From UHGV virus genome UHGV-0105671: DNA of 15,173 nucleotides, one strand, 5' to 3'. Shown here piece by piece: positions 9,356-9,452 of this stretch; position 1 is the stretch's first letter; each line of letters starts with the position of its first letter. The translations under genes and the position numbers were made by a program. The DNA is from a virus. Under the pieces are notes generated by a model, which was given only the letters and a program-made list of their open reading frames with translations, had not been told where the DNA came from and ran no database searches.

Positions 9356-9452
9356 ACGCCCTCCAAACTAAGTTTTATTAGATGCTAATTACAAATCTAT
9401 CTTTGGTCAATAAAAACTAAGATTACTTAGCAATTCAAGAAATGGTGCTCCT
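9356..9452. promoter_or_regulatory. Immunity-region operator/promoter segment (OR with PR and PRM candidates)
   Basis: Two 14-bp imperfect palindromes sharing CTAAG half-sites: CTAAGTTTTATTAG (9369..9382) and CTAAGATTACTTAG (9416..9429). On the minus strand a TTGACC -35-like hexamer lies 17 nt from a TAGCAT -10-like hexamer ahead of cro. Confidence 0.45.

Follow-up and report, generated by a model that had tools for sequence, protein, structure and literature searches.

Predicted repressor operators with a CTAA-N6-TTAG core in an e14/SfV-like lambdoid immunity region

What is the role of the palindromes that lie between cI and cro in this prophage, and do they define the specificity of its repressor? 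The locus belongs to UHGV virus genome UHGV-0105671, of which a single stretch of 15,173 nucleotides was analysed (the window; all positions are counted from its first base). A preliminary description had placed a cro–cI intergenic region at 9356-9452, and the gene starts confirm it: cro (minus strand) begins at 9355 and cI (plus strand) at 9453, leaving a 97-bp spacer between two divergent genes.

The immunity region and its repressor

The cro gene (9155..9355, minus strand) encodes a 66-aa protein of the P22_Cro family (Pfam PF14549, E 4e-11) with N15 Cro, Xfaso-1 Cro and P22 Cro as its closest relatives of solved structure, and its product carries the PGAP name 'Cro/CI family transcriptional regulator' in E. 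coli EC2. We read its Shine-Dalgarno element from the sequence as GGAGG at 9360..9364 (minus strand), a position that shows CCTCC/CCCCC in relatives. On the other side of the spacer, cI (9453..10079, plus strand) encodes a 208-aa repressor with a Pfam HTH_3 domain (residues 8-62) followed by Peptidase_S24 (80-201). The closest solved relative of its N-terminal domain is P22 c2 (2R1J, 3JXB, 1ADR; phmmer E 2e-10, residues 3-65), and its C-terminal domain aligns with lambda cI 101-229 (E 1e-27). Because Ala87-Gly88, Ser125 and Lys168 align with the lambda A111-G112 cleavage site and the S149/K192 catalytic dyad, so that cleavage site and dyad are kept in position, SOS induction by self-cleavage would be expected.

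Gene order past cro runs through a CII (CP76/YmfL) homologue and a Rha/Ash-type regulator, and past cI through homologues of yfdP, yfdQ (DUF2303) and yfdR. The nearest phage records are vB_EcoM-689R6, vB_EcoS-569R4, Kati, mEp460_4F5 and LLS. SfV, SfII and SfIV share the flanks with the window but neither cI nor the spacer, and the combination of common flanks with an own cI and spacer therefore points to an e14/SfV-like lambdoid prophage with its own immunity cassette. We consider it highly probable that the window holds an e14/SfV-like lambdoid immunity region in which a repressor with a P22-c2-type HTH and a lambda-cI-type self-cleaving domain acts on CTAA-N6-TTAG operators.

The immunity type of this region is uncharacterised, and the switch itself is an ordinary one, without a new mechanism. 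We found no paper on this immunity type, and the mEp460 literature consists of prophage-typing mentions with nothing on operators. The repressor type is present in only five GenBank phage records, none of them a studied phage, and 80% or more of the 3.1-kb immunity region is present in at least 418 complete E. coli genomes, which makes the region useful for annotation and immunity typing. Its operators would thus set a common, uncharacterised immunity specificity, and once the operator is known, superinfection immunity groups become predictable and reporters and orthogonal repressor–operator pairs come within reach.

Two further features of the window deserve mention. Its left end, outside the immunity region, carries a 380-aa Gram-negative porin (Porin_1, E 2e-151; 812-1954, plus strand). 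To the left of cro, a C4 antisense RNA (68 bits; 8021-8108, minus strand) and isrK (60 bits; 8133-8209, minus strand), both above the Rfam gathering scores, fall within a 382-aa open reading frame (7421-8569) that PGAP treats as a single 'Rha family' CDS. A Pfam Phage_ASH match (residues 117-211 of this reading frame) spans the same DNA as C4/isrK. The 5' third of the 'Rha family' CDS may therefore be not coding sequence but RNA genes of an antirepressor control module of the P1-immI/Gifsy type.

Palindromes on both sides of cI

The preliminary description had reported two 14-bp palindromes built on CTAAG/CTTAG half-sites in the spacer. Both dyads are present, but CTAAG/CTTAG symmetry is complete only in the one at 9417-9430; the other, at 9368-9381, has ATTAG as its right half, so the shared core is CTAA-N6-TTAG. 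This core occurs three times in the window, compared with 0.16 copies expected, with every copy in the flanks of cI, and three copies were reached in 0/200 dinucleotide-preserving shuffles of the window. The third full palindrome, which the preliminary description had overlooked, is at 10145-10158 and lies on the predicted early-left promoter. We scored candidate sites with a symmetrised weight matrix made from 40 distinct sites taken from relatives only; the three palindromes score 22-27 bits, compared with 18.3 for the best of 100 shuffled windows. The extended operator form is AACTAAG-N4-CTTAG, with N4 spacing kept in all sites and all relatives.

The rightward site nearest cro, OR1 (CTAAGTTTTATTAG, 9368..9381; 22.0 bits), abuts the −10 hexamer of PR and covers its start, predicted at ~9375 on the minus strand. 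Equivalents in relatives stand ~85-88 bp upstream of cI and vary in their central bases alone. PR was predicted by promoter scan on the minus strand as a −35 hexamer TTGACC (9405..9410) and a −10 hexamer TAGCAT (9382..9387) separated by a 17-bp spacer. The −35 (GGTCAA on the opposite strand) is invariant in close relatives and near-invariant more widely, with ATCAA/GTCAA variants, and the −10 appears as TAnnAT in relatives. Upstream of the −35, and 23 bp before the cI ATG, is OR3 (CTAAGATTACTTAG, 9417..9430; 22.8 bits), the best-conserved of the sites: it is invariant in LLS, mEp460 and 689R6, and its counterparts in relatives precede cI by 35-39 bp (48 bp in L013) and keep a constant 49 bp to OR1. 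OR3 probably overlaps PRM, for which no convincing −35/−10 pair was found in the spacer; weak candidates are TAGCAA at 9428-9433 and TAAGAT at 9418-9423.

Between these two strong sites we see one weak candidate, which would give three OR sites 24-25 bp apart, with OR1 and OR2 overlapping predicted PR. OR2 (CAAATCTATCTTTG, 9392..9405) scores −0.5 bits, which is not significant, and is centred 24 bp from OR1 and 25 bp from OR3. The same position holds a full CTAATCTTTATTAG in Rahnella prophages, a CTTAG right half in mEp460 and a CwAA-N6-TTwG dyad in most relatives, and it is this conserved position that makes 9392-9405 a probable low-affinity OR2.

On the far side of cI, a predicted intrinsic terminator (CACCGAAC-TAAGAAAA (loop)-GTTTGGTG-TTTT; 10102..10129, plus strand), read from the sequence, stands where the SfV record annotates a terminator at the equivalent position; in LLS both strands of its stem are changed in a compensatory manner, to CATCAAAC/GTTTGATG. 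Directly beyond it, the promoter scan returned a sigma-70 promoter on the plus strand, PL (10133..10161), with TTGCCA (10133-10138) and TAGATT (10156-10161) spaced by N17 and 9/12 matches to consensus; its transcript would start at ~10168. OL1 (CTAAGTTAAGTTAG, 10145..10158) lies over its spacer and −10, 66 bp past the cI stop, and at 27.4 bits has the top weight-matrix score of the window. It is invariant in LLS, mEp460 and 689R6, and an equivalent occurs downstream of cI in 14/20 relatives. PL itself reads TTGAC(C/A)-N17-TAGATT in relatives, and the 14/20 same-helix homologues with a downstream operator have that operator over the promoter. Both PR and PL are consensus matches, and the region 9100-11200 holds 4 promoter-like hits against a shuffle mean of 3.6; the weight we give to the two promoters comes from their overlap with operators and their conservation in relatives.

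One further candidate, OL2 (CTAAGAAAAGTTTG, 10109..10122), spans the loop and 3' stem of the cI terminator, its centre 36 bp from that of OL1. At 7.4 bits, with one mismatch, it is the fourth-best site in the window and not significant alone, and its symmetry is partly explained by the terminator stem around it. In Yersinia, Providencia and Klebsiella relatives (L015, L018, L165) the corresponding position, at 34-36 bp from OL1, is taken by a perfect palindrome, and in Klebsiella phage Kp4866-6 the equivalent sits in the terminator loop; this conserved position argues for 10109-10122 as a probable OL2. As predicted here, the true OL/PL region is 10109-10161, directly past the cI terminator.

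This placement differs from that of the preliminary description, which had put the early-left promoter farther right and had seen in CTAAGTA at 10805-10811 a third repressor half-site. The heptamer is in fact at 10802-10808 (plus strand), and it is a lone half-site and not an operator: at −1.7 bits it ranks 17th in the window, which is background. An early-left promoter with its operator near 10805 would be in keeping with the presence of the pentamer CTAAG at 10802-10806 and with the largely non-coding character of 10562-11161 in the PGAP annotation of a close relative. We nevertheless regard it as very improbable: the half-site has no partner, CTAAG is under-represented rather than enriched in the window (12 copies versus 19.8 expected), and no plus-strand promoter is predicted near 10800, whereas a complete operator–promoter unit conserved across genera lies at 10109-10161 and a leader RNA that marks the start of the early-left transcript in many phages lies at 10176-10237.

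The surroundings of this heptamer are of separate interest. Four nucleotides downstream of CTAAGTA begins an STnc100-like RNA (10812-11027, plus strand; 42.4 bits, under the gathering score of 47) that lies between a 91-aa open reading frame and yfdP, ends in a long hairpin and T-run (~10983-11027) and recurs at the same relative place in SfV and ST64B. This element may be sRNA-17 of E. coli RS218 (PMC7719688). A 226-aa open reading frame here (10844-11524, plus strand) is over-extended: the PGAP annotation of a close relative has yfdP begin at what corresponds to 11162 and treats the upstream part as a frameshifted hypothetical.

We then asked how the palindromes are distributed among repressor homologues. 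LLS (77% DNA identity), mEp460 and 689R6 keep the half-sites of all three palindromes invariant, with changes in the central bases. More widely, our sample comprised 37 cI homologues from species-representative genomes, 20 with the same recognition helix and 17 with other helices. All 20 of the former, at 63-90% identity, have the helix CGVS[DG]V[AST]VGYWE[KR]D in common, and they come from nine genera (Enterobacter, Kosakonia, Kluyvera, Serratia, Rahnella, Yersinia, Rouxiella, Providencia and Proteus). CTAA-N6-TTAG lies within ~120 bp of cI in 20/20 of them; 15/20 combine an exact OR1 with an exact OR3 at a distance of precisely 49 bp, and in the rest one site is off at its outermost base only. 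Among the homologues with other helices (≤46% identity), searched over ~3.6 kb each, the motif was found in 0/17. The motif search in related prophages that the preliminary description had called for thus bears out its expectation.

The same relation holds at greater distance. Kp4866-6 (Klebsiella) and 606R7 (E. coli) have an N-terminal domain that is ~50% identical, with the helix GVT[DG]VTIGYWEKD, and show the same outer dyad and layout. Prophages of Photorhabdus/Xenorhabdus have the P22-type helix VSHVAISQWEKE and, over the corresponding promoter, TTAAGTTATCTTAA, which is the P22 consensus (TTAAG-N4-CTTAA). The sites of the window are non-random, overlap predicted promoters and are co-conserved with the recognition helix of the repressor. 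That the two spacer palindromes are operators setting the immunity specificity, as first proposed, fits well with this pattern: they lie on predicted PR, are kept where the recognition helix is kept and are absent where it is another. Judged on these comparisons, they are almost certainly the repressor operators of a lambda/P22-style switch.

Two other accounts of the palindromes have to be weighed against this one. They could be by-products of AT-rich promoter sequence (a TAG-type −10 and UP-like A-tracts) that no repressor reads, and indeed the intergenic DNA is AT-rich and the TTAG right half of OL1 supplies the TAG of the PL −10, TAGATT. Yet conservation of the left half-sites and of the dyad symmetry does not depend on the hexamers, while central bases vary, the shuffles described above did not once produce three sites, and the equally AT-rich flanks of other-helix homologues are without them; we give this account almost no credence. 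The palindromes could also be real protein sites that serve Cro alone, or some other regulator, and not a cI-type repressor. Cro is adjacent and, in most relatives, conserved together with the sites, but L010, L013, L014 and L016 retain the sites around a same-helix cI where the divergent neighbour is not this Cro. Because the sites persist beside cI without this Cro, they track cI. The site sequence also shifts with the cI recognition helix, the OL sites adjoin the 3' end of cI, distant from cro, and the half-site geometry fits P22 c2, the closest solved homologue of the cI N-terminal domain (PMC4267663). We therefore judge a Cro-only role unlikely and retain the repressor as the protein that would read these sites.

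Some homologues depart from the common layout. The divergent neighbour in Rouxiella L014 and L016 resembles a Q-type antiterminator (judged by its N-terminal sequence only), that in L013 is a 185-aa protein, and in all three OL is absent after cI; L017 and L026 have a second palindrome pair, also 49 bp apart, 440-570 bp upstream. These five layouts are alternative wiring of the same repressor.

We propose that repressor dimers would bind the 14-bp dyads through the core CTAA-N6-TTAG, presumably with cooperativity between sites and in an order of affinities. At OR they would cover the PR start at OR1, the PR spacer at the weak OR2, and at OR3 the stretch from the PR −35 to cI, in which PRM has to lie; at OL they would cover the spacer and −10 of PL at OL1, with the weak OL2 inside the cI terminator hairpin. 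Occupancy of these operators would turn off cro, the early-right genes and the early-left operon, and RecA-stimulated self-cleavage at Ala87-Gly88 would release the repression. Cro presumably uses the same sites as the repressor. This is an assumption by analogy, since Cro and the cI N-terminal domain have no significant sequence similarity (BLASTP E 4.1); we set aside a recognition helix shared between the two proteins, for which the by-eye resemblance is anecdotal.

The leader RNA of the early-left transcript

What PL transcribes first may be of wider interest than the operators. At the 5' end of the predicted PL transcript, a structured leader RNA of ~62 nt (10176..10237, plus strand) emerged from covariation and scores 94 bits with a covariance model. 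It folds into three helices, P1 (10176-10180/10233-10237), P2 (10183-10185/10191-10193) and P3 (10205-10211/10224-10231). The segment 10177-10236 is conserved in 43 otherwise differing phage records, where it is never annotated; these include SfV, SfII, SfIV, ST64B, YeP1, ZF40, SPN3UB, mEp237 and 118970_sal3. In 5/6 annotated records that we checked, it follows a cI-type repressor gene of like orientation; in the sixth, mEp237, the genes upstream are annotated as hypothetical only, and early-left genes follow it in 6/6.

The structure is visible in comparative data only, the single-sequence fold of the PL leader being not significant (z −0.58). Across 23 diverged copies, 98% of cells in the three helices are paired, compared with 81% in shuffles and 21-40% with slid partners, and 10/15 pairs have changed on both sides. 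The observed values were reached by 0/500 shuffles on four of five measures and by 10/500 on the fifth, further pair types. Conserved G-U pairs indicate that the plus (PL-sense) strand is the one that folds. At least 120 viral (IMG/VR) contigs each contain a single copy of a near-invariant 27-nt core, AGGCAGGACGCCCACGAAGTAGCCGCC. Searches of Rfam with seven copies, at E up to 1, returned no family that matches the leader RNA, and the core sequence was not found in the literature searched.

The position of the element is as regular as its structure. In 15/18 copies, which carry at least five operator types, the core is preceded at 14-22 nt by the end of a strong sigma-70 promoter; SPN3UB (30 nt), mEp237 and Xenorhabdus bakwenae depart from this. 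This near-fixed distance between promoter and leader RNA provides independent support for PL at 10133-10161. The leader RNA is thus common to phages of at least five immunity types, and it extends to E. coli K-12, where e14 carries a copy between ymfK and ymfJ (77.8 bits with the covariance model; 806-882 of L295, minus strand, or ~NC_000913.3 1202105-1202181). Within the window, the leader model has a weak second match at 5253-5320 (plus strand; 13.4 bits, E 0.014) in which CAGGCAG and GCCCACGAA recur; this match, on the opposite strand from the PR operon, is probably due to chance.

The position of the leader RNA suggests, as a conjecture, a cis-acting role in elongation or antitermination. 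One precedent is putL of HK022, an antitermination RNA that lies directly downstream of PL and is highly structured (PMC9378689). Processive antitermination by put RNA needs no added factor and goes through the zinc-binding domain of the RNAP beta' subunit. Like putL, the leader is directly 3' of PL, starts within a few nucleotides of the transcript 5' end and measures ~60-70 nt (PMC9378689), and the two RNAs have the short motifs ACGAAC and CAGGAUGA at comparable offsets. The architectures differ, with a closing helix around two hairpins in the leader and two long stems with a triplex in putL, and the leader RNA has no second, putR-like copy on the PR side. We rejected homology with put: the covariance model R1, run on HK022 22-30 kb (cI and PL/putL included), gave no hit above 8 bits, and the shared motifs stand in different structural contexts.

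Tentatively, then, PL could launch an undescribed, widespread leader RNA that works as a cis-acting processive antiterminator, put-like in position and role yet of a distinct class, although we hold this to be no better than a doubtful possibility. If it were true, phages of the e14/SfV/ST64B/ZF40 type, which have no N, would read through early-left terminators such as the hairpin at ~10983-11027, and the immunity-specific operators would form a swappable cassette ahead of a universal leader.

Relation to known switches

The half-sites recur in a system of another kind. The C-box of C.Csp231I is CTAAG-N5-CTTAG, bound by an Xre-family HTH dimer (PMC9638921), so that half-site pentamers (CTAAG/CTTAG) and protein class are the same as those predicted here, and the repressor shows marginal similarity to the C protein 4YBA (E 0.007). 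However, the C-box has a 5-bp spacer versus 4 bp here, and C.Csp231I is a restriction-modification controller rather than part of a prophage switch. Given the N5 spacing of the C-box and the unrelated context, we rejected a C.Csp231I/RacR link.

The prophage backbone is that of SfV and e14 (cohE-croE), with which the region shares the ymfL-type CII homologue, the Rha/C4/isrK module, yfdP-yfdQ-yfdR and the gene order, together with the positions of the cI terminator and PL and the PL leader RNA. Those phages differ in having their own cI and operators, with TGTACC-type repeats. Because homology is limited to the flanks, their immunity specificity differs.

The overall layout resembles that of lambda in the divergent cI-cro pair, the predicted OR spacing of 24-25 bp, the OL sites over PL beyond cI and the self-cleaving S24 domain. 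Unlike in lambda, the operators are 14 bp instead of 17 bp and unrelated in sequence, and OR1 lies at the PR start where the lambda site lies over the −10. OL stands 30-80 bp past cI, with rexAB absent and OL2 inside the cI terminator, and neither an N gene nor a nut site can be recognised; the PL leader holds another conserved RNA instead.

The geometry of the operators themselves is that of P22. P22 operators are 18 bp long, ATTTAAGATATCTTAAAT, with positions 2-7 and 12-17 contacted and 8-11 not contacted (PMC4267663, PMC5175364). The sites described here are like those of P22 c2 in having four AT-rich central bases flanked by two contacted arms of 5 bp that end in TAAG/CTTA, and the predicted layout also matches, with three OR sites, one of them weak here, between divergent cI/cro and OL sites over PL (PMC4267663, PMC5175364). 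The sequences part at operator positions 2-3, which are AC here (AACTAAG-N4-CTTAG) and TT in P22 (ATTTAAG-N4-CTTAAAT). The helix differs in the residues equivalent to N32 (D30 here), S36 (G34), Q37 (Y35) and N46 (G), while the equivalent of Val33 is kept, and the C-terminal domain of this repressor is nearer to lambda cI. A T to C change at position 3 abolishes specific binding by P22 repressor (PMC4267663), so hetero-immunity with P22 would be expected. The pairing of CTAAG with the helix SDVAVGYWE and of TTAAG with the helix SHVAISQWE would thus be a natural specificity swap, and since it falls at an operator position critical for P22 repressor, it makes this question of structure and specificity a testable one. 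In our best reading of the sequence, the palindromes around cI are operators of P22 geometry and different specificity, set in a lambda-like switch.
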